Source: Candidatus Pacearchaeota archaeon (GTDB taxonomy: Archaea; Nanobdellota; Nanobdellia; Pacearchaeales; UBA284). Taken from it: 32,000 nt of DNA. The stretch covers positions 540,001 through 572,000 of the forward strand of contig CP061211.1 of assembly GCA_026016245.1 (NCBI GenBank), in the 5' to 3' direction. The stretch's first letter is position 1. Each line of letters begins with the position of its first letter. The position numbers were made by a program, and so were the translations under genes. The notes under the pieces were generated by a model. The model made no database searches, was not told the DNA's origin, and saw only the letters and a program-made list of their open reading frames with translations. This document shows, one piece after another, positions 4,273 to 32,000 of this stretch.

Positions 4273-4320
4273 TGTAACCACCAACATAAGAAGTTGAAGT
4301 TTATAATTCTTTCTGAGAAA

Positions 4321-4392
4321 TGGACTCGCCGGGATTCGAACCCGGAACCTCACCCTAGCCAAGGGCGCATTCGACCATTGAACTACGAGCCC
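4321..4392 (-). tRNA. tRNA-Ala (anticodon GGC)
   Basis: Minus-strand cloverleaf by hand: acceptor GGGCUCG/CGAGUCC with the Ala identity pair G3:U70, anticodon stem CGCCC/GGGUG, loop UUGGCUA, T arm CCGGG-UUCGAAU-CCCGG, discriminator A. No encoded CCA and no intron. Confidence 0.9.
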
Positions 4393-4425
4393 ACAATTTA
4401 AGAAATGGGAAGAGGTTTTTAATTT

Positions 4426-11701: not shown

Positions 11702-11773
11702 TGGACCGGACGAGAATTGAACTCGCAACCTCTGCTTAGCGAGAGCAGCGTTCTACCGTTGAACTACCGGCCC
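11702..11773 (-). tRNA. tRNA-Ala (anticodon CGC)
   Basis: Acceptor GGGCCGG/CCGGUCC with G3:U70, anticodon stem CUGCU/AGCAG, loop CUCGCUA, T arm GCGAG-UUCAAUU-CUCGU, discriminator A. No CCA and no intron. Confidence 0.9.
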
Positions 11774-19052: not shown

Positions 19053-21344
19053 TTATATTTTTTTCTTTTTTAGCTCTTTTTTAAGCCAGTCCTGCCATTC
19101 CTTGAAAACTTGTCTGCCCTGAGGTACTCCAATATCTTGTCTTACTTTATCACTTATATTATGAAACATATTATTTGCTTTAAGAACCCATGGTGCCTCA
19201 AGTAATTGTGGCCTCTTTATTTTCTTGGCTGTTTTTACCATTGCTTCTTTTATTTTTGCCCTCAGTAAGATATTGTCCCAGACAGCATCCCAACTTCCTG
19301 CCCATCCTTTGACATTTCCTGCAATATCTTTCAAAATCTCGCTTTCTCCATTAATAAGATCATCAGTTGGAATAAGCTCATCTTTTCTTACATCATACCT
19401 AAATAAGTCAAGGAAACCATGTTCAATACTAGGGTCAGATATCCAGTGCTTTCTTATTTCAGCAAGCTGCAAGACTCTTCTCCATCTGTGGAGACCATCA
19501 GGACTTTTGATTGGATTACATATAAGAATTATATCTGTTGCTTTGAAACTTGTTGCCGGCACTTTCAAATCATTAACAACCCTATCAAAAACTCCATAAG
19601 GACTTGCTCCATGAATTGTTCCTGCCACTACATTAGCTAAAGCACCAATTCTCATGGCTTCATATAATGCCAAAGCTTCTTCACTTCTTACCTCACCTAC
19701 TATCAAAGAAGAGTCTCCAAGACGCAGAGAAGTACGGATACCTTCTGCTGCACTCATTTCTGTTGTTTCTCTTGCCAAAGCTTCTCTAACTTTCATTCTT
19801 AAAATATCATAACCAAGGTCTCGAAGAGAATTAACTGGCAGTTCCATTGTTCCTTCAATAACAATAACTCTATAACGCGGCATAATCTCTAACATGCAGG
19901 CCCCTAACATAGATGTTTTACCAGAGCTTCTTGTTCCTGCAATAATTAGGGTTCTGCCTCCATCAATCAAGAAAGAGAGAACACCAGCTGTCATCGGATT
20001 AATCATTCTGTTTTGAATAAAAAGAGGCAGGGTCCATGGTTTTTCTCTATGTCTTCTGATTGCATAAGCCAAACCATAAGGACTTAATGGTTTTTGAATT
20101 ATAGATACTCTTGCCCTTGCTGCCCCAATTATTAATTCAGTGTCAAGAACAGGATTAGCTTCATCTAATGCCCTCCCAGAAATCATTCTAAATTTAGCTG
20201 CCCATGATTCAGCATCTTCATGACTTGGAATAATATTAGTATTACACTCATCAAATTCTTGATGTCTTATAAATATAGGAACAATGCCTATAGGTGCATT
20301 AATCATTATGTCCTGAATTTTATCATCCTGTAAAAGCACTTCTACTAAACCAAAACCAATAGTATGCCTTACAAGAATTACTGCTAATTTGTTTATTTGC
20401 CTATAACTTAGAGATATTTTTTTTGTTTCAGCAAGCTCTCTGATAAGGTCACGGGCAATATTAAAGAAAACCTGTCTTATTCTAGATGGGTCAACAAATT
20501 CTTCTGCCCTTGGTTTGTGTTCGAGCAAGACATTCCTGGCCATATTAACTAGGCTTTGGAGTTCTTCAGATAAAGTGAATTCAGGAGCCATAATATGATA
20601 AATATCTTTGGTTTTCCCAGGAATTTTCAGTATAGTGATTGTACTTTTATCATATTCTGGGCCTATATCATATTGGTCAATGATTTCAGATTCTGGAGGA
20701 AAAGAAGACATTAACCTAGTGAATGTAAAGTTAGGAACTATCTCTGGCCTAAAAATTTCTTTGTATAGTGTTCTGTCTCCAACTTTATGCCCTAAAAGTC
20801 TTTCTTTTACTATTTTTATTATTGTCAAGCCCTCTAGCAAAGAGAGTATTTTTGTTAAAAGTCTGATATAATGCATCTCAGAAGTTTGTTCTGCTTTAGG
20901 AAGTTTTTTCGCAATGATTCTTTCTTCTCTGAGCAATCTTTTTGCTTCAACATAACAAGCCAGAGGATCTTGTTTAAGAAGAGTTAAAACAAGATAACGC
21001 ATTGTGTCATATCTTTGTGGCAGGTATTTTTTGTATTTGTATGGTTCTAGTGTTGAGGTTTCTAGAACTTTCACTTGTTTTATTAAATGCACATAAAGCT
21101 GCCCAACTTCAACTAGCAATGAGACTTGTCTGAAATCATAACTATAGTTTCTTTGCTGGACAAAAACCACTCTTGAAACATTTGGTGATTCAATAATAGA
21201 TTCAACAGTGCGGGCCATTACAATAGGAGAATCTGCGATAGTTGGCACATAGGGAGCACCAAGATAATTAATATACATAACATCCTGGCCAGCCTCTCTT
21301 GTGATTTCATAAGCATATAATTTTGTTTCTGGTTTAAAAATCAT
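19053..21344 (-). CDS. Type II/IV secretion-family ATPase (FlaI/PilB/VirB11 superfamily), enlarged 763-aa form
   Basis: Walker A GTRSSGKTSMLGA, VIVIEGTMELP, Walker B/Asp-box region SSLIVGEVRSEEA, His box AGTIHGASP. Long N-terminal (~450 aa before Walker A) and C-terminal (~120 aa) regions. Confidence 0.9.
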   Translation of the reverse strand: MIFKPETKLYAYEITREAGQDVMYINYLGAPYVPTIADSPIVMARTVESIIESPNVSRVVFVQQRNYSYDFRQVSLLVEVGQLYVHLIKQVKVLETSTLEPYKYKKYLPQRYDTMRYLVLTLLKQDPLACYVEAKRLLREERIIAKKLPKAEQTSEMHYIRLLTKILSLLEGLTIIKIVKERLLGHKVGDRTLYKEIFRPEIVPNFTFTRLMSSFPPESEIIDQYDIGPEYDKSTITILKIPGKTKDIYHIMAPEFTLSEELQSLVNMARNVLLEHKPRAEEFVDPSRIRQVFFNIARDLIRELAETKKISLSYRQINKLAVILVRHTIGFGLVEVLLQDDKIQDIMINAPIGIVPIFIRHQEFDECNTNIIPSHEDAESWAAKFRMISGRALDEANPVLDTELIIGAARARVSIIQKPLSPYGLAYAIRRHREKPWTLPLFIQNRMINPMTAGVLSFLIDGGRTLIIAGTRSSGKTSMLGACMLEIMPRYRVIVIEGTMELPVNSLRDLGYDILRMKVREALARETTEMSAAEGIRTSLRLGDSSLIVGEVRSEEALALYEAMRIGALANVVAGTIHGASPYGVFDRVVNDLKVPATSFKATDIILICNPIKSPDGLHRWRRVLQLAEIRKHWISDPSIEHGFLDLFRYDVRKDELIPTDDLINGESEILKDIAGNVKGWAGSWDAVWDNILLRAKIKEAMVKTAKKIKRPQLLEAPWVLKANNMFHNISDKVRQDIGVPQGRQVFKEWQDWLKKELKKKKI

Positions 21345-22864: not shown

Positions 22865-23776
22865 ATGGATCCTGGAGTAATGAGTTATTCAAAAATTAAT
22901 ACATATAAAGGCTGTCCTTTTAGTTATTTTTTAGGCTATGGTCTTGGAGTTATTGTTCCTGATAATCCAGCTCTTGCTTTGGGGAGTATGTTACATACCC
23001 ATGCAAAACGATTTTGGGATATAAATTATAAATCAGTTGATAAGTTTGTTGGAGCTTTTAGAGGGATGTATTTACAAAGAGTTTTTGGTAAACTTAAAAA
23101 TCACCAGCCAGTGGCTTTTAAGTATAAGGATGAACCATGGATTAGGTTGAAGCAAGGGGAAAAAATGATTGAATTATTCTACAGACAGAATATCAGAAAT
23201 AAAGAAAGAGAAAAAAGACCAATACTTTTAGAAAAACAAGTTAGGGCTCCTTTTAGAGGGTTCAGAGTTTTAGGTAAATTAGACAGGGTAGATGAATTAA
23301 AAGCAAGAAAAAAAGGACCCAAAAAAATAATTATTGATTATAAAAGTGATAAGATTGTTCCGGTAGATGAACTAGAAGCTAACTTTGTTTATAGTTCTCA
23401 GTTTGTTATCTATAGAATAATACATAAACATGAATTTAAAGAGAATGCTGATGTTTATGTATGGTATCTTCGTATAGGCAGGATGTTTTTAATAAAACCT
23501 AAACCAAATGATAAAAATTGTCTTGAAAAATTATTGATAGAAGTTACAGATGATATAAAAAAAGACAAATTTCCTATGTTTAAAGGATTTCATTGTAAAA
23601 GTGTTTGCGAGTATTTTAAGCCTATCTGTAAACACATCAAAAATTCAGACAAATGTATTCTTGAACTTGAGAGGATGATTAGAAAAGGAAAGCTAAAAGT
23701 AAGTAAGAATAAATGGAAAAAATATCTTGAAAGAAAAAAACTTATATTTCATCCTGTAAGCCATCAGCTGTTATAA
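22865..23776 (+). CDS. PD-(D/E)XK nuclease, Cas4/RecB-like, with Cys cluster for a probable 4Fe-4S centre
   Basis: N-terminal Cys (YKGCPFSYFL). Nuclease core GKLDRVDEL...IIIDYKSDK and a QxxxY-like YSSQFVIYRI. C-terminal CKSVCEYFKPIC. The 3' end overlaps radA by 35 nt (convergent). Confidence 0.75.
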   Translation: MDPGVMSYSKINTYKGCPFSYFLGYGLGVIVPDNPALALGSMLHTHAKRFWDINYKSVDKFVGAFRGMYLQRVFGKLKNHQPVAFKYKDEPWIRLKQGEKMIELFYRQNIRNKEREKRPILLEKQVRAPFRGFRVLGKLDRVDELKARKKGPKKIIIDYKSDKIVPVDELEANFVYSSQFVIYRIIHKHEFKENADVYVWYLRIGRMFLIKPKPNDKNCLEKLLIEVTDDIKKDKFPMFKGFHCKSVCEYFKPICKHIKNSDKCILELERMIRKGKLKVSKNKWKKYLERKKLIFHPVSHQLL

Positions 23777-24707
23777 AGAAAATACATTCTGCTTCTGGCA
23801 AGTTTGGAGAATCAATCATTTTTGCAACTCTTGAATCTTTTCTTCCTCTTCTTAAATAAATTCGGTATGTTGAGGCATGGCCAACAATATGTCCGCCAAT
23901 TGCTTGTGTTGGATCTCCGAAAAGAACATCAGGACGGGCCATGACTTGGTTTGTTATATAAATAGCAAGATTGTTTGCTTCAGCAATCCTCATTAGACTA
24001 TGTAAATGCTTGTTGATTCTTTGCTGCCTGTCTGCCAACATTCCACGACCTGTAAACTCTGCTCTGAAATGTGCTGTAATTGAGTCAACTATCAAAAGTC
24101 GTATTGGTTCTCCTCTCCTTATTAAATCATTAACTTTCTCTACTAGAAGAATTTGATGATCACTATTGAAAGCACGAGCAACAAAAATATTCTTTAATGT
24201 TTTCATTGGATCTAGACCCTGGGCCTGAGAGATTTGTTTTATTCGCTCTGGTCTGAATGTTCCTTCTGTATCAATCCACACAACCTTAGCATTAGCACCA
24301 CCTTTTTCTTTAGGAAGTTGGGTTGTTACAGCAATCACATGCGCTATCTGGCTTTTTCCAGTACCATATGCACCAAAAGTTTCTGTTATAGCTCTTGTTT
24401 CTATCCCCCCACCTAACAATGCATTTAGATTTTTGCTTCCTGTGCTGATTTTGAAAATTTCTTCCCTCTTTTTTAGATATTCTGTTGCATCTTCAAATTC
24501 AAGATGGAGCATTTTTCGAGCTGCAGCTATAGCTTTTCTTGCAGAAGCCCCAGTAATATCAGCCACAGTGCTTAAATCATTAGGAGTCATTACTGCTATG
24601 CTCATTAAATCACCATAACCTACTGATTCTAGTTTTGATGCTGTTGTCTGGCCAATGCCAGGTAAATCTGTTAACTTCATCTCTTTTTTATCTTTGTCCT
24701 TAGCCAT
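23742..24707 (-). CDS. radA: DNA repair and recombination protein RadA
   Basis: N-terminal HhH (LTDLPGIGQTTASKLESVGY), Walker A GAYGTGKSQ, Walker B LLIVDS. Confidence 0.95.
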   Translation of the reverse strand: MAKDKDKKEMKLTDLPGIGQTTASKLESVGYGDLMSIAVMTPNDLSTVADITGASARKAIAAARKMLHLEFEDATEYLKKREEIFKISTGSKNLNALLGGGIETRAITETFGAYGTGKSQIAHVIAVTTQLPKEKGGANAKVVWIDTEGTFRPERIKQISQAQGLDPMKTLKNIFVARAFNSDHQILLVEKVNDLIRRGEPIRLLIVDSITAHFRAEFTGRGMLADRQQRINKHLHSLMRIAEANNLAIYITNQVMARPDVLFGDPTQAIGGHIVGHASTYRIYLRRGRKDSRVAKMIDSPNLPEAECIFFITADGLQDEI

Positions 24708-24761: not shown

Positions 24762-25733
24762 TTATTTGCTTAATTCCATAATAATATCATCTGGGTTAAC
24801 TTCTTTTAAACTGTTAATAATAAACTCATTTCTGTTGAACATTACATTTTTTCTAGCTCTGCCAGAAAAGAGCATTTCAGCTCCCAAAATTTCCTGTTTT
24901 TTGTCGAGCATGAAAGATGAATCTTGCAGTTTTTCTATCTCCTCTTCTTTTATCTTGAATATGTTAGTTATTGTCTCATTAAATGCTACTGCTCTCATGC
25001 TTTCACTCCCATCATCAATAATCAGGCTAATCAATGCTCTTTTTTTTGGGATAACAGCATTATGTTTCATGCATACAGCTTTATCTCCTTCATAAGAAAC
25101 TTTCATACCACATTCTGGGCAGGTCATGAAAAAGTTTGGCTGGAAAACCTGGACAATATTACCCCTAACACTCACCCCCTCCCCAGGTTGTAATTCAGAG
25201 AGTTTCTTTATTGGCAGTGTTTCTTTTCTTATTTTTACTGTCTTAATTTCCTTATCACTTAACTCAATACTTGAATTAGAACTAAGATGGATCTCTCTTA
25301 TTGTTGTGCCTCTTACATCAGCATTTTTTATATCAACAACAGAGTCTTTCTTAATTGTTCCATTTTTTATCTTGTCTATGTGGTGGGTATCCCACAAAAC
25401 AACACGAATACTTGAGCTATCATCAGCAAGTAAGAAGGAACCTATCTCCCCTTCATGTTCTGCTCTCCTAAATTTTCTTGTGGGATAAATCTCAATTACT
25501 TTTCCTATGGTTTGAATTTTTTTCATTCCTATAAGCATATCAATTACCTTAAATTTTTGTTTCTCAAAACTTATTCCAAGTTCAGCTGCTACAACTTGGG
25601 CTGCTCCTAAACTACTAATAAGGCCAGAAAGCTTAGCTTTTTTTGCATCTACTCTCCTTTGTATCTCTTCTATACCAAGACCAGAAAGACGAGCTATTCT
25701 CTCTATAAGTTGTTGATATGTTGCGTGAATCAT
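24762..25733 (-). CDS. Replication protein A-like ssDNA-binding protein (OB folds plus zinc ribbon)
   Basis: N-terminal IERIARLSGLGIEEIQRRVDAKKAKLSGLISSLGAAQVVAAELGI is typical of archaeal RPA. OB-fold region. Zinc ribbon CPECG...CMKH. Confidence 0.75.
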   Translation of the reverse strand: MIHATYQQLIERIARLSGLGIEEIQRRVDAKKAKLSGLISSLGAAQVVAAELGISFEKQKFKVIDMLIGMKKIQTIGKVIEIYPTRKFRRAEHEGEIGSFLLADDSSSIRVVLWDTHHIDKIKNGTIKKDSVVDIKNADVRGTTIREIHLSSNSSIELSDKEIKTVKIRKETLPIKKLSELQPGEGVSVRGNIVQVFQPNFFMTCPECGMKVSYEGDKAVCMKHNAVIPKKRALISLIIDDGSESMRAVAFNETITNIFKIKEEEIEKLQDSSFMLDKKQEILGAEMLFSGRARKNVMFNRNEFIINSLKEVNPDDIIMELSK

Positions 25734-25856: not shown

Positions 25857-26657
25857 CTAAATTATCATTGCAAATTTTAATATAATTTTTTCAAATTTCA
25901 TTCCTTTATCCTCAAAAAAGAAATATTCTTCTGTTTCTAATTCAAATATAAGATATGAGCCTTGTTTTTTTACATCAACTGTCCATCCATCAAACTCAAG
26001 TTTATTTTTTACACAAAGAACCATATCAACAGCTTCTTCATCTCTGCATTCTCTTATATCAGAATTTGTTTTTATATAAATGAAATCAAAACTATCTAGA
26101 TTTATATTCTCTTCTTCCAAGATTAAGGTTATAGAAGGATTAAATTCATATTCAAGCTTATAGGTTGCAAAAGTTCCTTTTTCTTCACTGCTAAATGTTT
26201 TGGGATCAGTTTTTGTTTTTATTTCTCCATTTTCAAAAGTATGTGTGTAGGTTATGTCTGTAAGGTTTGTTTCAGAATATGCCTTTAGAGAATCAAAGAA
26301 ACTTTTTCCATACTCATCTGTGAATTTGTTCTGCAAGAAGATTTTTTCTGGCATACAATTTGAGTTCCATATTATTGTATCTCCAGTAACAGTGCAAGAA
26401 GGATTGTCTTTGTCTATTGCAGAATCTTTTACAATCTCATAAAAAGCCTGCGATGCTGCTAGTTTTGATGATTCATTGATGTAGAAGGAAAGCCTATCAC
26501 CCATGTTTTTTATATTTATTGAAGCAGTAGTTTTGATAACTCCAGCATTAATATTTTTGTTTGTGGTTGAGAAAGCATGCCATGACATTCCTATGAAGAT
26601 GATCATTCCTAAAACCAAGCCAATTGCAAATACTCCTGCTTTTTTGTTTTTTATCAT
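25857..26657 (-). CDS. Pilin-like protein 11 of operon (266 aa), class III signal peptide
   Basis: MIKNKKAG|VFAIGLVLGMIIFIGM. 4 Cys in the mature part. The ATG overlaps the upstream stop (ATGA). Confidence 0.65.
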   Translation of the reverse strand: MIKNKKAGVFAIGLVLGMIIFIGMSWHAFSTTNKNINAGVIKTTASINIKNMGDRLSFYINESSKLAASQAFYEIVKDSAIDKDNPSCTVTGDTIIWNSNCMPEKIFLQNKFTDEYGKSFFDSLKAYSETNLTDITYTHTFENGEIKTKTDPKTFSSEEKGTFATYKLEYEFNPSITLILEEENINLDSFDFIYIKTNSDIRECRDEEAVDMVLCVKNKLEFDGWTVDVKKQGSYLIFELETEEYFFFEDKGMKFEKIILKFAMII

Positions 26658-27070
26658 TTTATTTCTAATCGTATGGTTATTATTTCATCAGATGGAATAT
26701 AGAATAATGAACCTGCTTGTTTGTTGAATTCATAATTATAGATGCCAAGGGATTTTTCTGCCTCCTGATTTAATATTTCTTCATATATTGGATTAATCTT
26801 AGAAAGCCTTATTAGTTCAGCTATTGTTATATCTTGTTTCTCCTCTTCAATTTCTATCTCTACTGTTTTTTGAAGCCATGCTTGAAGAGAGAGATGTTCC
26901 TGGTCTTTTGTTATCTGTTCTGTGGCAATTTTTTCTATTTCTTTTTTTGGAGCGCCCCATAATACAGTGGATATAATGATAAAAATTATTAGAAGAAGAG
27001 CAACAATTACAAGTCCAACTGTATCTTGTACAAGCTCTCCTGCCTGTGCTTTTTTATTTTTTATCTCCAT
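26654..27070 (-). CDS. Pilin-like protein 10 (138 aa), class III signal peptide
   Basis: MEIKNKKAQAG|ELVQDTVGLVIVALLLIIFIIIS. The signal is near-identical to that of protein 9. Confidence 0.7.
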   Translation of the reverse strand: MEIKNKKAQAGELVQDTVGLVIVALLLIIFIIISTVLWGAPKKEIEKIATEQITKDQEHLSLQAWLQKTVEIEIEEEKQDITIAELIRLSKINPIYEEILNQEAEKSLGIYNYEFNKQAGSLFYIPSDEIITIRLEIK

Positions 27071-27075
27071 TTTAT

Positions 27076-27531
27076 TTACAGATTTTTTTCAACTTTTTTA
27101 ATTGCCAAAAATAAATCTATCTTAGTATCTTCATTATTTTTGAGAACATAATATTCCTCTTGCAAGCATGATGGGTAATACTTGACTTTCACTTTTTCTT
27201 TTTCAGCTTGACATAGAGCAAAGAGAAATTCATCACCAAGAGCAATATTATCATTTTTTAAAGTTATGTTAATATAGATCTCTTGTTCATTAAAGTACAT
27301 ACAATCTCTTATGGCATCTTCACTGAATTCATCAACAATACCATTTGGGGCAACACACTCCATTATATTTCTAGCTACTGTGCTTGCTTCAATATCACGC
27401 ATATCATACTGCTTGGAATAGTGGGCTGTCACAACTGCAACCACCCCCCCAACAACAATAACTAATATGAGGAATTTGTGAAGCCAGGTCACTGCATGTC
27501 CTGCCTGTGCTTTCTTATTTTTTATCTTCAT
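27076..27531 (-). CDS. Pilin-like protein 9 (151 aa), class III signal peptide
   Basis: MKIKNKKAQAG|HAVTWLHKFLILVIVVGGVVAVV; 4 Cys. Confidence 0.7.
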   Translation of the reverse strand: MKIKNKKAQAGHAVTWLHKFLILVIVVGGVVAVVTAHYSKQYDMRDIEASTVARNIMECVAPNGIVDEFSEDAIRDCMYFNEQEIYINITLKNDNIALGDEFLFALCQAEKEKVKVKYYPSCLQEEYYVLKNNEDTKIDLFLAIKKVEKNL

Positions 27532-27548
27532 TTTTCTATTTTTTCATT

Positions 27549-27896
27549 TTATCTTATATTTATAATCGTGAAAGCATCTTTTCTTGAAAAATCCACATTA
27601 TCCTTAAGATAACAATCATAGAAATAGCCTCTATCAAATTCCCCCTCTTTGACCACAACACCATTACCCTCTTTTTCTATACTTACTCTAGTATCATGCT
27701 CTATTATAATTCTTGTTCCTGGCTCAGCTGTTGATATAAGGAGACAAGTTTCTTTTGCAAGAACCTGTTTTTTCATTGCTATTCCTGAAGCTTGATTACT
27801 GACCCATAAAGTGAGAATGATTATTATAGCTATGATGAAGATAAGAGTGAAGATAAATTCCCACCCAAGTTCAACACCTCTTTTATCTTTAAGCAT
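27549..27896 (-). CDS. Pilin-like protein 8 (115 aa), class III signal peptide
   Basis: MLKDKRG|VELGWEFIFTLIFIIAIIIILTLWV; 2 Cys. Confidence 0.7.
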   Translation of the reverse strand: MLKDKRGVELGWEFIFTLIFIIAIIIILTLWVSNQASGIAMKKQVLAKETCLLISTAEPGTRIIIEHDTRVSIEKEGNGVVVKEGEFDRGYFYDCYLKDNVDFSRKDAFTIINIR

Positions 27897-27917
27897 TTTA
27901 TCGAAAAAGTATCAGGA

Positions 27918-28841
27918 TTATGGAATACTCTCTATATTATTGCATACTGCACCTATTTCAGAAGCTTTCATAGGTGCAAGAATAAGATGATAACAGCCTT
28001 CCCATTCTTCGTTACATTTTGAGGATACATATGAATTACCTATTATAGTTGATACTGCTTGTGTTCCTAATGCTGATCCAACAACAATAGCAACAACTAT
28101 TGGATGTTTAAATGCTGTGCTGGCTACTTTTCCAATTAATCTTCCAGTAGTCCAAGGTCCAGTTGTTACCATACTTACTGCTCCGAGCCCTGCTACTATT
28201 TTCAAATCATTTTTAAGAACTTCCCAATAACTTCTACCACGTATGCCCATATAAATAATTACATAATCTGAATCAGTTCTTATTTTTGGGGCCTCTATAC
28301 CTACAGCAAGATCTTTATCTGCCTGGTCTGTGAAATATTCATAATAGGTTATGTTGCTAAGAGGAATCTTAGTTTGTACAAGATAATTAAACATATCTAT
28401 TTCCTTTACTTTTTCTTTAACATTATCATCGAACTTTATAGTAGTACAGATAACACAAGCTGATTTGGGGTAACCTGCTCCTGGAACAGCATAACTTTGC
28501 CAGATACTTTCACTAAAAAAATCCATTTCTCCCTCACCTAACATCCACCAACAGTCATACATCTGGTTTGCTATCTCTCTTTTGATAAAGTTTTCATCTG
28601 TTGAGCTTATTTCTATATGCTGTGTTTTGCAATTTAATGGAATACCAGCAAGCTGTCCAGGTTGCAGGCCAGCTATCTCCTGACTTCTTAGAATTACAGA
28701 TTGATGACATGCCTCTTTATTGATTGTTTCCTCATAAGGAAAAATTTTCAGAAAATAAAAAAGTATTGCAGCAGTTATTATTAGAATCACAATACCTATA
28801 ATAATGTTCTGGACTAAAGCCCCTTTTTTGTTTTTCATCAT
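27918..28841 (-). CDS. Pilin-like protein 7 (307 aa), class III signal peptide plus a second Gly/Ala/Val-rich hydrophobic region
   Basis: MMKNKKG|ALVQNIIIGIVILIITAAILFYF. 8 Cys. Residues ~213-268 (IVAGLGAVSMVTTGPW...IVVAIVVGSALGTQAVSTIIG) are hydrophobic. Confidence 0.7.
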   Translation of the reverse strand: MMKNKKGALVQNIIIGIVILIITAAILFYFLKIFPYEETINKEACHQSVILRSQEIAGLQPGQLAGIPLNCKTQHIEISSTDENFIKREIANQMYDCWWMLGEGEMDFFSESIWQSYAVPGAGYPKSACVICTTIKFDDNVKEKVKEIDMFNYLVQTKIPLSNITYYEYFTDQADKDLAVGIEAPKIRTDSDYVIIYMGIRGRSYWEVLKNDLKIVAGLGAVSMVTTGPWTTGRLIGKVASTAFKHPIVVAIVVGSALGTQAVSTIIGNSYVSSKCNEEWEGCYHLILAPMKASEIGAVCNNIESIP

Positions 28842-28871
28842 CTTAATTTGTATTTTTATTTATATAAATTT

Positions 28872-29003
28872 TTATATTACCCCATATCTCTTCAACAGAT
28901 AAATTATCATACCTCCAATTATTGCAAAAAGTATTATTAAAAATAATATTTTGATTAGTGTTTCAACTGCCATGGCTTTCTTGTTTATTTTCTTTTTTAT
29001 CAT
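28872..29003 (-). CDS. Pilin-like mini-protein 6 (43 aa), class III signal peptide
   Basis: Hand translation MIKKKINKKA|MAVETLIKILFLIILFAIIGGMIIYLLKRYGVI. The ATG overlaps the SLT gene stop (ATGA). Below the track cutoff. Confidence 0.55.
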   Translation of the reverse strand: MIKKKINKKAMAVETLIKILFLIILFAIIGGMIIYLLKRYGVI

Positions 29004-30079
29004 ATCAACTCCATTTTTGCCCTAATTTTTTCTGCATAAATACGTCCGGCAAATGTTGATGGGCATCCTGTAATTGTTAATGGTTCACAATTATTTCTTA
29101 CTCCGCCAGAGCCAGTATTATATGCAGCTATCCCTAACCATTGATTTTGAAATTCAGCTATTCTTTCAGCAAGGAATCTTGTACCAGCATCAATGTTTTT
29201 TATAGGATTAAATCTTTCATCTTCTTCTTTATTGCAATTTTCTGGATGTACTTTATTGCAAATTGATATTGAAGTTCTTTTTTCAGACATGCATGGAGAA
29301 AGCTGACTTATATCTTCTGTTCCATAGTCAGGCACAGAAAGACCGAGCAGCTTGGCTGTTTGTGGCATGATTTGCATTAGTCCCACTTCACCATCACAAC
29401 CTATTGCATCCTCAACAGATAGAGATTCCTGAATTATTATTGCTCTGATAATTTTTTCAAATTCCTCTTTGTTTGCAATATAATTACTAAGTTGATATTG
29501 GCTGTAGTATTTTTCTACTATGCTCGCCAACTCGCTATCCCACTCCTTTGTTTTCATCTTATTATAAGCAAAATTAACATCTACTTTTTCTTCCTCACTT
29601 AATTTTACCCCTACTACTGCAAGTTCTATCTTACTTACCTCATAATGATCTATTTGATGTGCAAGCCAGATATCCACAATTTCAATCTTTATGTTAGCAG
29701 GCTTTTCTTCTTGTTTTAAAGGCAGTTCAATCACACGACAGAGTTTGCTTTCACATTTTTTCTTACAAACACAAAGAACATTTTTTTGGAATAATGTTGT
29801 AGGTTTTTGGAAATTCTCATTAATATTGTGTTGCTCATCAAAAGCAACTACATACCAGCCTTTAGGAGCTAAAAGAGTGTATCTTGCTACTTCAGCTTCT
29901 TCAAGGCTGTTTAGTTCTTGTATTAAACTATCTAGTGTTCCTTGTGCCTGCATTTCATCCTGTTTACCAAAATATGTTCTGAAAAGGATAGTGCTAGCAT
30001 ATAGGAGAATAAGGATAACAGCAATTGCAACTATTATTTCAATTATTTGTTTAAGCAAAAGCAAACCTCTTTTGTTCAT
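29000..30079 (-). CDS. Pilin-signal-anchored lytic transglycosylase (SLT domain), 359 aa
   Basis: The track start at 30094 is TTG; the ATG at 30079 gives MNKRG|LLLLKQIIEIIVAIAVILILLYA. The C-terminal half carries the family-1 LT motifs in order: IIIQES (catalytic Glu-Ser), GLMQIMPQTA, AAYNTGSGG. 10 Cys. Confidence 0.8.
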   Translation of the reverse strand: MNKRGLLLLKQIIEIIVAIAVILILLYASTILFRTYFGKQDEMQAQGTLDSLIQELNSLEEAEVARYTLLAPKGWYVVAFDEQHNINENFQKPTTLFQKNVLCVCKKKCESKLCRVIELPLKQEEKPANIKIEIVDIWLAHQIDHYEVSKIELAVVGVKLSEEEKVDVNFAYNKMKTKEWDSELASIVEKYYSQYQLSNYIANKEEFEKIIRAIIIQESLSVEDAIGCDGEVGLMQIMPQTAKLLGLSVPDYGTEDISQLSPCMSEKRTSISICNKVHPENCNKEEDERFNPIKNIDAGTRFLAERIAEFQNQWLGIAAYNTGSGGVRNNCEPLTITGCPSTFAGRIYAEKIRAKMELI

Positions 30080-30125
30080 AAAAGAAACATACAAAGATAT
30101 TATTTAAAATTTCTTGTTATTATTA

Positions 30126-30305
30126 CTACTGAACTTGTGTTGCGTTCCAAAGACCGAGAGCATTTTTAAGTTTTGCCATCAAATCAGACATGAACTGCCT
30201 CATTGCTCCAGAGAAAATGAGGACAATAACAACAAGAACAATAATAGCAAGAATTATAATCACAATAGTATTGATTGAGAGTCCTACAGCCTTCTTGTTG
30301 CGCAT
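30126..30305 (-). CDS. Pilin-like protein 4 (59 aa), class III signal peptide
   Basis: Hand translation MRNKKA|VGLSINTIVIIILAIIVLVVIVLIFSGAMRQFMSDLMAKLKNALGLWNATQVQ. Below the track cutoff. Paralogous N-terminus to protein 3. Confidence 0.6.
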   Translation of the reverse strand: MRNKKAVGLSINTIVIIILAIIVLVVIVLIFSGAMRQFMSDLMAKLKNALGLWNATQVQ

Positions 30306-30310
30306 TTTGC

Positions 30311-30685
30311 TTACTTGCTTCTTATAGTTTCACACATGTCTGAAGTAAATCCTGCCCCTAGACATTCTTCCTCATCCAATGCTTTGATAAGATTGTTATC
30401 ACAGTAGACTGGTAGGGTTCCTATAACTTCTCCATCTGACATTTCTCTTATTGTAAATTCATGTGTGCAAAAACTGGTTTTGTCTCCAGCGCTGCAATAT
30501 AGAGTGCATGCATTCCTAGTCTGTTCTATGTCTGTTTGTGAATAGGCCCCAGGGATTGGTATGATCTTTTGCCAAAGTTGTTGTATTCCTCCAGTAAAGT
30601 AAAGTGCAAGAATAACTAGAACAAGAATTGCAAGAATTACTATAATTATTGTATTAACGTTTAACTCAACAGCTTTCTTATTCAT
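30311..30685 (-). CDS. Pilin-like protein 3 (124 aa), class III signal peptide
   Basis: MNKKA|VELNVNTIIIVILAILVLVILALYF; 6 Cys in the globular part. Confidence 0.7.
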   Translation of the reverse strand: MNKKAVELNVNTIIIVILAILVLVILALYFTGGIQQLWQKIIPIPGAYSQTDIEQTRNACTLYCSAGDKTSFCTHEFTIREMSDGEVIGTLPVYCDNNLIKALDEEECLGAGFTSDMCETIRSK

Positions 30686-30740
30686 TTTTTACCTCTTTTT
30701 ATTTTTTTATTAAGTATGACTTGTTTTTAAAATTTTCTTT

Positions 30741-31331
30741 TTATTCAGCACATCTCTCAAGCTGAATTATGGGTGGTTTTTCATAGCTTATCACAAAATA
30801 AAGCCCATCTTGTTTTTTGTAAAAGAAAGGACTTATAACATTAATTTCTTCACTCCACCATAAAGCACCTTTTTTTGACCCCTCTTGTTTAAACAATGGT
30901 GGCTCTTTACTGAAGTCAACAACTTTTTTTATTCTGTAAGGAACTTCTTGTTTTGTTTCGTAAAATATTGCAGAAATCTTCAGATCACTTAGAGTAGTGC
31001 TTTTATAATCCTTATTTCCGTGAGTTAGTGTGATTTCTACAGCGCGCCCAGGTAATTCAGTAAAAACAAGGTTTGAATTCTGAACAAAACTTGCTGGAAA
31101 ATTAGGCAGGCCGTCACATACGCAATCATTATTCTGCAAAGAAAGACATTTGTCTATATTGCTGATAAGGACATCAAAATTATCTTCATTCTGCTGTTGC
31201 TGTTCTATGTTAAGCTTCCCCCCTCTTATTGCCGCATAGAGAGGATTGAAAAAACCAAGAAGTATAAGCACGACAACAGCTATTACTATTACAGCGATTG
31301 AAGCTCTAATAATCTCCCATATTCCCATCAT
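30741..31331 (-). CDS. Pilin-like protein 2 (196 aa), short atypical class III-like signal
   Basis: MMG|IWEIIRASIAVIVIAVVVLILLGFF. It lacks the Lys run but keeps Gly followed by a hydrophobic helix with an early Glu. 4 Cys. Confidence 0.55.
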   Translation of the reverse strand: MMGIWEIIRASIAVIVIAVVVLILLGFFNPLYAAIRGGKLNIEQQQQNEDNFDVLISNIDKCLSLQNNDCVCDGLPNFPASFVQNSNLVFTELPGRAVEITLTHGNKDYKSTTLSDLKISAIFYETKQEVPYRIKKVVDFSKEPPLFKQEGSKKGALWWSEEINVISPFFYKKQDGLYFVISYEKPPIIQLERCAE

Positions 31332-31339
31332 TTTTATTT

Positions 31340-31495
31340 CTACCTACCAAATCTCAAAAAAGCTTTGAGTTCTTCTAAAATATTTACCCCTCGTTTTTGT
31401 AAAACAAATATAAAGATTATGACAAGAGCAAGAACAACTAGTCCAATAACCCACCAGTTTATCTCGCTCCAGACCAAACCTCTTTTGTTTTTCAT
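31340..31495 (-). CDS. Pilin-like mini-protein 1 (51 aa), class III signal peptide; first gene of operon
   Basis: Hand translation MKNKRG|LVWSEINWWVIGLVVLALVIIFIFVLQKRGVNILEELKAFLRFGR. ATG at 31493-31495, TAG at 31340-31342. Below the track cutoff. Confidence 0.6.
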   Translation of the reverse strand: MKNKRGLVWSEINWWVIGLVVLALVIIFIFVLQKRGVNILEELKAFLRFGR

Positions 31496-31550
31496 CTAAA
31501 CAAAAAGTTTTTTAACTTTAAAAATTTAATCTGAGTGAGGCTTGGGAAAG
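31496..31550. promoter_or_regulatory. 55-bp divergent intergenic region with a shared AT-rich TATA-like core
   Basis: The core aactttaaaaatttaat (about 31513-31530) lies ~25 nt from the minus-strand ATG (31495) and ~30 nt from the plus-strand ATG (31551). This fits leaderless divergent transcripts. Confidence 0.4.
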
Positions 31551-32000
31551 ATGAACAGGTTATTGGCTATTTTTTTATCTTTATCTACTGCTATTTCTCC
31601 AATTGCTCTAGCACAAGAATATCAGGGAATGAAGCTGGAACAAAGAATAAAGGATTTTAATGAGGTCATCAGAAGAAGGAATTTCTCAAATTATGATGTG
31701 CCTATAATTCATCTTCAAGTAGTTGATAAGGATTCTAAATGGCCTTTGGAAGATGCAAGAGTTGAATTAAAACATGAGGATAAGAGGATAACAGATGGTT
31801 ATCCTGTCCCTGGAGATTATATGTATTATAATCCTTATAGATCCAAAACTGATGAAGAAGGAAATGTTATTTTTAGCGTGACTCCATGTCATGAAGAGGA
31901 AATAACAAGATTAGAAGTAAAGTGCCAAGGTTATTATCCAATTGATGTAGATTTTCCCTTGCTTAATCTTTTAGCACATATTAATAACACTTTAAGTAAC
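31551..32000 (+). CDS. Secreted protein, partial (first 150 aa), Sec signal peptide; possible carboxypeptidase-regulatory-like beta domain
   Basis: Hand translation MNRLLAIFLSLSTAISPIALA|QEYQGMK..., then HLQVVDKDSKWPLEDARVEL...KTDEEGNVIFSV. Open to the window edge, so not in the track. Confidence 0.55.
   Translation, partial: MNRLLAIFLSLSTAISPIALAQEYQGMKLEQRIKDFNEVIRRRNFSNYDVPIIHLQVVDKDSKWPLEDARVELKHEDKRITDGYPVPGDYMYYNPYRSKTDEEGNVIFSVTPCHEEEITRLEVKCQGYYPIDVDFPLLNLLAHINNTLSN

Follow-up and report, generated by a model that had tools for sequence, protein, structure and literature searches.

Proteins with SLT (family-1 lytic transglycosylase) domains have already been reported from Pacearchaeota and Woesearchaeota, and the idea that these archaea direct such enzymes at bacteria is likewise in print (PMC8204110, Castelle et al. 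2021, fam00969; PMC9723730, Vigneron et al. 2022, GH23). The first of these papers itself cites earlier SLT reports (Rinke 2013; Castelle 2015). Here we describe a gene of the same lineages and catalytic family, for which a murein target, and hence episymbiosis with or predation on bacteria, can be proposed in the same way. It lies in a 32,000-nucleotide stretch of Candidatus Pacearchaeota archaeon DNA (assembly GCA_026016245.1, contig CP061211.1, positions 540,001 to 572,000), referred to below as the window, and is the fifth of 11 consecutive minus-strand genes for pilin-like proteins (gene 5). The published proteins reach about 3,000 residues and no pilin-like carrier or operon has been described for them, whereas gene 5 encodes only 359 residues with a pilin-like carrier and occupies a fixed operon slot. 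Its SLT domain is also interchangeable with four other types of murein hydrolase, unlike those of the large published proteins.

Dedicated SLT enzymes accompany several bacterial envelope-spanning machines, including VirB1 in type IV secretion systems, BfpH and R64 PilT in type IVb pili, EtgA in type III secretion systems, and FlgJ/SltF in flagella. Gene 5 resembles these in that the enzyme appears to be encoded inside the operon of an envelope-spanning filament machine. However, each of the bacterial enzymes is a protein on its own, exported by Sec to the periplasm, where it opens the murein of the cell producing it, whereas the gene 5 enzyme is fused to a subunit-like carrier in an organism without murein; to our knowledge, no archaeon makes this polymer. 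Within the archaea, the sugar-binding proteins of the Sulfolobus bindosome carry class III (prepilin-type) signals and have a dedicated ATPase and membrane-protein system for assembly at the cell surface, and the 2007 FlaFind survey by Szabó et al. reportedly includes archaeal proteins that bear class III signal peptides without being part of a pilus. The bindosome shares with gene 5 the use of a prepilin-type signal on a functional extracellular archaeal protein, whereas its cargo consists of solute-binding proteins rather than a wall hydrolase. We know of no conserved carrier beta domain, and no exchange of grafts, among the Sulfolobus class III-signal proteins.

Another model is offered by the bacterial modular type IV pilins, represented in Raynaud et al. 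2021 (PMC8179133) by Streptococcus sanguinis PilB (vWA module) and PilC (lectin module). In these proteins, a short linker connects a small N-terminal pilin module, which bears a class III signal, to a grafted module, of which there are many alternatives, and the graft is proposed to be presented on the filament, probably at its tip. Gene 5 shares this layout, and we propose the same role for its enzyme. It differs in being archaeal, in lacking IPR012902/N_methyl, and in having a beta domain without detectable similarity to solved pilins. Moreover, grafts in the gene 5 family are enzymes that degrade the wall of another organism, whereas the bacterial grafts are adhesins, and no murein hydrolase is among the grafted modules named in the available text of PMC8179133.

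Both the lytic transglycosylase annotation of gene 5 and the idea that these archaea target bacterial peptidoglycan are already on record. What appears to be new is the combination of an archaeal pilin-like carrier, a fixed operon slot and interchangeable murein hydrolases, for which no description was found in the openly accessible literature (subscription-only papers lay outside the scope of the search). On the evidence presented herein, we assign a probability of about 0.62 to the proposal that gene 5 encodes a bimodular type-IV-pilin-like surface protein of Pacearchaeota and Woesearchaeota (DPANN archaea), in which a conserved carrier is fused to a complete lytic transglycosylase and which acts by the mechanism outlined further below.

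The original prediction, made from the sequence alone, had placed an SLT domain fused to a pilin-type signal at positions 29000-30079. An open reading frame (ORF) is present there as claimed, and its translation contains every string that had been quoted, namely MNKRGLLLLKQIIEIIVAIAVILILL, IIIQES, GLMQIMPQTA, AAYNTGSGG and the insertion SPCMSEKRTSISICNKVHPENCNKEEDERF. The frame opens with an ATG at 30079, and the interval includes the stop codon at 29000-29002. An in-frame TTG at 30094 provides an alternative start that would prepend MYVSF (window 30080-30094); the ATG is the likely start because homologues begin at or near MNKRG. Given that the product is 100% identical to the NCBI entry 'MAG: lytic transglycosylase domain-containing protein [Candidatus Pacearchaeota archaeon]', located on a 710,724-bp contig, the basic annotation of the gene already exists. 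Full-length homologues number 17, with 37-69% identity, and the conservation figures given next derive from an alignment of these 18 family members.

The catalytic assignment is carried by several lines of evidence. Pfam SLT (PF01464) matches the protein with E=2.2e-22 and 79.2 bits, compared with a gathering cutoff of 21.3, the match being split into two stretches by the insertion. When the protein is aligned with solved structures by phmmer, Glu218 of the IIIQES motif pairs with the catalytic Glu of RQES in Pseudomonas aeruginosa Slt, the inactive Slt mutant E503Q (6fc4/6fcq) shows Q in this same column, and AAYNTGSGG pairs with AAYNAGPGR. Motifs II-IV (GLMQ, AYNTG and the downstream Tyr) follow in the correct order. 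Residues E218, S219, K294, Y320 and C339 are invariant in the family, and at least 90% of members keep G233, Q236, A319, G323 and Y348. An AlphaFold2 (AF2) model built from the family alignment has a mean predicted local distance difference test (pLDDT) score of 82.3, exceeds 85 over most of the SLT domain, and shows residues 162-358 as an all-helical, lysozyme-like fold. The top Foldseek matches of this model in the PDB are LtgA, Slt, Slt70, MltD, MltE, MltC, Cj0843 and MltF (probability 1.0, E down to 4e-5), accompanied by a few chains of family-23 goose-type chitinases. By every sequence and predicted-structure test applied, the C-terminal half is thus predicted to be a catalytically complete family-1 lytic transglycosylase, as had originally been claimed.

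Chance occurrence of the motifs was considered and rejected, since the hidden Markov model (HMM) score is far over threshold and 17 homologues retain the five invariant residues. Small bacterial SLT enzymes of the MltE/Slt type have the motifs ES, GLMQ, AYNxG and Y and the lysozyme-like fold in common with gene 5, from which they differ by their low identity (26-34%) and by the absence of the extra insertion of about 45 residues that gene 5 carries between motifs II and III. This insertion (approximately residues 245-290) had been noted as Cys-rich, and it is indeed present between the GLMQ and AYN motifs. Its Cys residues are conserved only among the closest relatives and are not kept in distant members, and it is poorly modelled by AF2, with pLDDT below 50 at residues 254-278.

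The region of about 150 residues that precedes the enzyme had been described as a Cys-containing linker. It is instead a conserved carrier module, encompassing the N-terminal 160 residues, that consists of a long helix and a beta domain and is also found without an enzyme. AF2 predicts one long helix (residues 3-58, 56 residues) followed by a compact beta domain (64-149) both in the full protein (pLDDT approximately 82) and in the isolated module (89.6). In the full model, confidence dips at residues 151-160, and two helices (162-175 and 181-194) then lead into the catalytic domain. The residues N2, K3, R4 and G5 are invariant or nearly so across the carrier family, and C103, C105, C109 and C114 are near-invariant. 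The resulting C-x-C-x3-C-x4-C motif (29738-29773, residues 103-114) is nearly invariant across 148 distant family members, and its Cys residues could pair into two disulfides or bind a metal within the beta domain.

A carrier profile searched against 1.84 billion cluster representatives matched 1,392 of them at E<=1e-3, of which 234 reach E<=1e-10; statistics on length, leader motif and Pfam grafts refer to the best 148 of the 1,392. Lengths are bimodal, with 60 of the 148 proteins shorter than 200 residues (the module alone) and most others falling between 250 and 400. The dipeptide [KR][GA] directly precedes the hydrophobic helix in 135 proteins (91%; Gly in 100, Ala in 35). The first Glu after the Gly or Ala is most commonly found at +5 (42 of 135) and then at +6 (18). 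A total of 25 of the 148 fit [KR][GA]-Φ-x-Φ-x-E, which is near the bacterial prepilin consensus, for example KRG/LTLLE and KRG/ILLPE, where the slash marks the end of the leader. The N-terminus of gene 5, MNKRG/LLLLKQIIEIIVAIAVILILLYA, consists of a short basic leader followed by a hydrophobic stretch, and this layout fits a class III signal.

The strongest indication of function comes from the modules that are grafted to the carrier. A survey of related genomes had been suggested, and in every related locus inspected the wall hydrolase was found in the same operon slot; the slot variants, which also include a module without a Pfam match and the 157-residue carrier without any graft, are listed in Table 1. 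Among the 148 representatives, Pfam recognizes SLT in 16, Glucosaminidase in 7, Amidase_2 in 4, 3D in 4, VanY in 3 and M15 in 3, and no further family at E<=1e-4. When the C-termini of these proteins were clustered together with those of 20 proteins from earlier searches, the recognizable groups were SLT (34), GH73 (8), 3D (5), Amidase_2 (4) and M15 (3). Two additional C-terminal clusters of 7 members each (P0122/P0163; P0088) and many singletons have no Pfam match, and these modules are candidates for new wall-active domains because every identifiable graft is a murein hydrolase. The carrier therefore occurs both alone and with alternative C-terminal modules, which is the pattern expected of a modular pilin.

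Given that each identifiable graft cuts a different murein bond, murein cleavage is probably the selected function of the grafts; judging from these sequences, the pattern would otherwise be hard to explain. Pseudomurein was set aside as a substrate. Amidase_2 and M15/VanY enzymes act on MurNAc-L-Ala and D-amino-acid peptide bonds, and on known chemistry these grafts would target bonds that pseudomurein lacks. Because carrier-only orthologues fill the same slot, the carrier would seem to be a core part of the apparatus independently of any graft, with the wall-cutting enzyme as an exchangeable add-on.

These observations also bear on whether the enzyme might be a self-directed 'space-maker' that opens the wall of its own cell for passage of a filament, in the manner of VirB1, BfpH or FlgJ. 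Bacterial pilus, secretion and flagellar operons are well established to encode dedicated SLT enzymes, and the best NCBIfam match of the gene 5 protein, at E=2.7e-7 and far short of the cutoff of the model, is to a lytic transglycosylase of flagellar assembly. We nevertheless judge this reading to be highly improbable. Archaea are not known to us to make murein and there are no mur genes in the window, the carrier-only orthologues suggest that the apparatus works without a hydrolase, and the amidase and D-Ala-D-Ala/M15-type grafts target D-amino-acid stem peptides, which archaeal walls lack.

The genomic setting agrees with the claim that gene 5 resides in an archaeal pilin operon. We scanned the 97 ATG-initiated ORFs of at least 40 residues on both strands of the window for [KR][GA] within residues 1-16 and a strongly hydrophobic stretch after it. 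The ORFs that show this pattern are exactly the 11 consecutive genes of the cluster at 25857-31495; none of the 86 elsewhere do. The cluster, which starts at 31495, is tightly packed, with intergenic gaps of 5-55 nucleotides and two overlaps of 4 nucleotides. Gene 4, which immediately precedes the modular gene in all loci compared, has sub-threshold matches to Pfam Flp1_like (E=4e-4) and to the NCBIfam prepilin-type N-terminal model (E=0.003), and is a candidate for the major filament subunit. The window also encodes a type IV filament assembly ATPase whose best solved relatives are Archaeoglobus fulgidus GspE (4e-28), the Tad ATPase CpaF (3e-23) and the archaellum ATPase FlaI (6e-17).

A candidate for the membrane platform is suggested by related loci. 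In L013, the gene order is ATPase, a 720-residue polytopic membrane protein, the pilin-like operon, RPA and RadA, such that the ATPase adjoins the cluster region. L001, L011, L016 and L017 likewise encode a polytopic protein of 720-735 residues immediately upstream of the operon, and this protein is highly conserved, with 78% mean column identity in four copies. On the basis of its position and topology, it may be a very divergent platform protein of the PilC/FlaJ/TadC type. Its expected place relative to the window is just past position 32000. The more distant cluster L015 comprises a fragment of the 720-residue protein and 11 genes with KRG/KKA-type N-termini, and ends with a 273-residue Peptidase_A24 protein, a member of the prepilin peptidase family.

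We propose the following mechanism. As follows from the sequence, the basic leader would stay in the cytoplasm while the helix inserts into the membrane, such that the enzyme would face outward. A prepilin peptidase would remove the leader, and we consider it well supported that the gene 5 protein belongs to a type-IV-filament-like system in which this occurs. An ATPase of the CpaF/FlaI type, together with the platform protein, would build a filament or short pseudopilus from the carrier and the other ten pilin-like proteins of the operon; for this polymerization, and for display of the enzyme on the resulting structure, support is moderate. By analogy with the bacterial modular pilins (PMC8179133), the enzyme would most likely be exposed at the tip, and the original notion of a fibre-delivered cutter would then apply. 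On contact with a bacterium, the enzyme would cleave the MurNAc-GlcNAc bonds of murein, and the local opening of the wall may allow attachment, penetration or lysis, or free muropeptides as food.

Several observations weigh against this proposal. The N-terminus of gene 5 reads KRG/LLLLKQIIE, in which Lys takes position +5 and Glu is reached at +9, and so does not have the Glu at +5 of the mature pilin that is the bacterial consensus and is not required in archaea; the spacing from Gly to Glu also varies among members of the SLT subfamily. No pilin or class III signal model of Pfam or NCBIfam matches the gene 5 protein at E<=1. The 720-residue polytopic protein gave no match at all in Pfam, even at E<=10, or in a PDB profile search, and thus shows no T2SSF signature, and no prepilin peptidase is encoded within the 32-kb window. 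If the bacterial partner were Gram-negative, its murein would be shielded beneath the outer membrane. With respect to the cluster as a whole, none of the operon proteins matched a Pfam or NCBIfam pilin model over threshold. A structure search of the carrier module against the PDB returned no significant match and no solved pilin, and the best matches of the carrier profile to PDB sequences were geopilins at only E~1. The pilin-like nature that we propose thus draws on the signal motif, the predicted helix-plus-globular layout and the genomic context, rather than on detectable pilin homology.

Given these caveats, the main alternative is that gene 5 encodes a membrane-anchored ecto-enzyme, whose helix serves as a signal anchor or short stalk and which digests free or dead-cell peptidoglycan for its amino sugars and amino acids, with neither filament nor living partner. 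The failure of the carrier to match any solved pilin or pilin HMM and the lack of Glu at +5 in the gene 5 subfamily are as this would predict. A precedent also exists in the Sulfolobus sugar-binding proteins, which have class III signals and are not known to form long pili. Furthermore, use of the peptidoglycan of dead bacteria as a resource by Pacearchaeota has been proposed (PMC11537232). We nonetheless consider a plain ecto-enzyme unlikely, although it merits serious attention. A simple anchor needs no particular residue at -1, yet Gly or Ala follows Lys or Arg there in 91% of the family. Gene 5 also stands among ten other pilin-like genes and near an ATPase, its relative in L015 lies near a prepilin peptidase, and the carrier-only orthologues in the same slot imply that the module has its own role in the apparatus.

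Returning to the filament-like system, its extension to living partners is more tentative. In this form, the organelle of Pacearchaeota and Woesearchaeota would carry an exchangeable 'can-opener' in a fixed slot and breach the murein of living bacterial hosts, which we regard as possible, yet on balance doubtful. According to PMC11291902, cultivated DPANN archaea so far all depend on archaeal hosts.

The genes that follow the operon raise another possibility. An RPA-like gene and then RadA are located after it on the same strand, an order common to the window, L001, L003, L013, L014 and L017, and a gene for a PD-(D/E)XK nuclease follows RadA in the window, L001 and L003, overlapping the 3' end of RadA in the window. 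This linkage could simply be synteny passed down by inheritance, or it could connect the operon functionally with the handling of DNA. In the latter case, the enzyme could be an antibacterial weapon or lysis factor associated with nucleic-acid acquisition, which frees DNA or nucleotides for uptake as do the fratricide hydrolases linked to competence. Pacearchaeota have been proposed to live on scavenged nucleotides (PMC8204110), and a 'vampiristic' way of life, with GH23 enzymes and pore-forming toxins, has been suggested for Woesearchaeota (PMC9723730). We consider such a role improbable, however, since RPA and RadA are housekeeping proteins whose synteny may be inheritance within one lineage, and since no DNA-binding pilin, DNA-uptake channel or toxin is seen in the window.

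Given that SLT domains are typically bacterial, and that the nearest relatives outside the family are bacterial, an artefact caused by bacterial contamination, chimeric assembly or chance motifs also had to be weighed. The composition is flat: the guanine-cytosine (GC) fraction is 0.35 in the SLT part, 0.334 in the N-terminal part, 0.328 in the operon and 0.325 in the AT-rich window, along which it ranges from 0.27 to 0.375. The enzyme is fused in frame to the conserved N-terminal module, and independent assemblies from ENA, JGI, Logan and NCBI show the same gene order beside archaeal RPA and RadA. Related loci in GTDB species-representative genomes all (7 of 7) belong to Pacearchaeota, Woesearchaeota or unclassified 'archaeon' metagenome-assembled genomes. 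On these grounds, and with the HMM score noted above, an artefact was rejected and we give it practically no credence, in agreement with the earlier argument against contamination.

Identification of a donor for the SLT domain, which had been proposed, did not succeed. A profile search with this domain returns the family first, after which the score falls from 123 to 82 bits to bacterial SLT proteins, and no close outgroup or donor lineage was found; a single-sequence search recovers family members only. The nearest outside relatives are bacterial proteins of 160-280 residues with 26-34% identity, from Endomicrobium, Clostridia, Desulfoplanes, Brachyspira and Moranbacteria. Because of this drop in score and low identity, no donor lineage can be named. 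As judged from sequence comparison, the domain is bacterial in type and a long-standing resident of the archaeal lineage.

The coordinates of the features discussed are collected in Table 1. The C-terminal region of gene 7 is rich in Gly and Ala, and its extreme C-terminus is conserved in the orthologues (...CNNIESIP, ...CQNIESIS, ...CSIIESIP). The ORF on the opposite strand that runs off the end of the window is positioned, between the operon and the 720-residue protein, where related loci hold a gene for 241-248 residues that has no Pfam match. The window also carries genes for FtsZ, ribosomal proteins L1, L10 and P1, aIF5A, Spt5/NusG and a class II tRNA synthetase, and two tRNA-Ala genes that are the only Rfam matches in it.

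Table 1. Features of the gene 5 locus and related loci. Positions refer to the window unless preceded by the designation of a related locus (L001 to L017); a slash marks the end of the leader.
Feature	Position	Strand	Basis
Gene 1, 51-aa pilin-like protein (MKNKRG/LVWSE...)	31340..31495	-	Orthologues in L001, L011, L013, L016, L017
Gene 2, 196 aa, N-terminal hydrophobic helix, signal motif only a loose match	30741..31331	-	ORF list, signal scan
Gene 3, 124-aa Cys-rich pilin-like protein (MNKKA/VELN...)	30311..30685	-	ORF list, signal scan
Gene 4, 59-aa all-helical Flp-like protein (MRNKKA/VGLS...)	30126..30305	-	Sub-threshold HMM matches, position
Gene 5, predicted bimodular pilin-like carrier plus SLT lytic transglycosylase, 359 aa	29000..30079	-	ORF list, Pfam SLT, NCBI identity
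Gene 5 leader MNKRG, putative class III (prepilin-type) signal, predicted cleavage after Gly5	30065..30079	-	Family conservation
Gene 5 residues 6-58, long N-terminal helix: hydrophobic first half (membrane/filament core), amphipathic second half	29906..30064	-	AF2
Gene 5 residues 64-149, small beta domain of carrier, near-invariant C103, C105, C109, C114	29633..29890	-	AF2 strands, Cys conservation
Gene 5 residues 150-195, connector and two helices into catalytic domain	29495..29632	-	AF2
Gene 5 residues 196-359, SLT/GH23 family-1 lytic transglycosylase domain	29003..29494	-	Pfam, PDB alignments, Foldseek, conservation
SLT motifs: ES 218-219, GLMQ 233-236, AYNTG 319-323, Y348	within 29003..29494	-	
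Codon of predicted catalytic Glu218	29426..29428	-	Translation IIQES, Slt alignment
Gene 5 residues 245-290, variable insertion between motifs II and III	29210..29347	-	Translation, pLDDT, conservation
Gene 6, 43-aa pilin-like protein (...NKKA/MAVE...), start overlaps gene 5 stop by 4 nt	28872..29003	-	
Gene 7, 307-aa pilin-like protein (MMKNKKG/ALVQ...), hydrophobic C-terminal region	27918..28841	-	Orthologues in L011, L015
Gene 7 orthologues	L011 8550-9437; L015 3870-5114		
Gene 8, 115-aa pilin-like protein (MLKDKRG/VELG...)	27549..27896	-	ORF list, signal scan
Gene 9, 151-aa pilin-like protein (MKIKNKKA...)	27076..27531	-	ORF list, signal scan
Gene 10, 138-aa pilin-like protein (MEIKNKKA...)	26654..27070	-	Weak NCBIfam ComGD minor-pilin match, E=0.017, sub-threshold
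Gene 11, 266-aa pilin-like protein (MIKNKKA/GVFA...), last of cluster	25857..26657	-	ORF list, signal scan
RPA-like gene	24762..25733	-	
RadA gene	23742..24707	-	
PD-(D/E)XK nuclease gene	22865..23776	+	
763-aa ATPase for type IV filament assembly (T2SSE family), 4.5 kb away from cluster	19053..21344	-	Pfam T2SSE 1.9e-10
ORF running off window end	31535..32000	+	
Two tRNA-Ala genes, anticodons GGC and CGC	4320..4393; 11702..11773	-	Rfam
720-735-aa polytopic protein, candidate platform	L001 3634-5808; L011 2625-4787; L013 2185-4347; L016 3673-5880; L017 4270-6429		
Slot 5 module SLT	Window, L001-L003, L006-L010		
Slot 5 module GH73 glucosaminidase (PF01832)	L004/L005, L011		
Slot 5 module Amidase_2 (PF01510)	L013		
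Slot 5 module M15/VanY peptidase	L014		
Slot 5 module 3D domain	L016		
Slot 5 module without Pfam match	L015 2743-3729		
Slot 5 as 157-aa carrier only, no graft	L017, on at least 24 contigs		

Few uncultured archaea are as widespread as Pacearchaeota and Woesearchaeota, whose genomes are tiny, and a dedicated surface apparatus with interchangeable murein hydrolases would be specific molecular evidence that many of them act on bacteria. It would turn the vague statement that an SLT domain is present into testable questions: which subunit carries the enzyme, where on the cell it resides, which bond it cuts, and which wall types or hosts are susceptible. The principle of the modular pilin would be extended to archaea and to enzymatic cargo. 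If the more tentative form of the proposal, with living hosts, is true, the apparatus would be a cross-domain attachment or penetration device in which the type of graft tracks the wall chemistry of the host. The locus would thereby provide a concrete handle on how uncultured DPANN archaea may attack or attach to bacteria.

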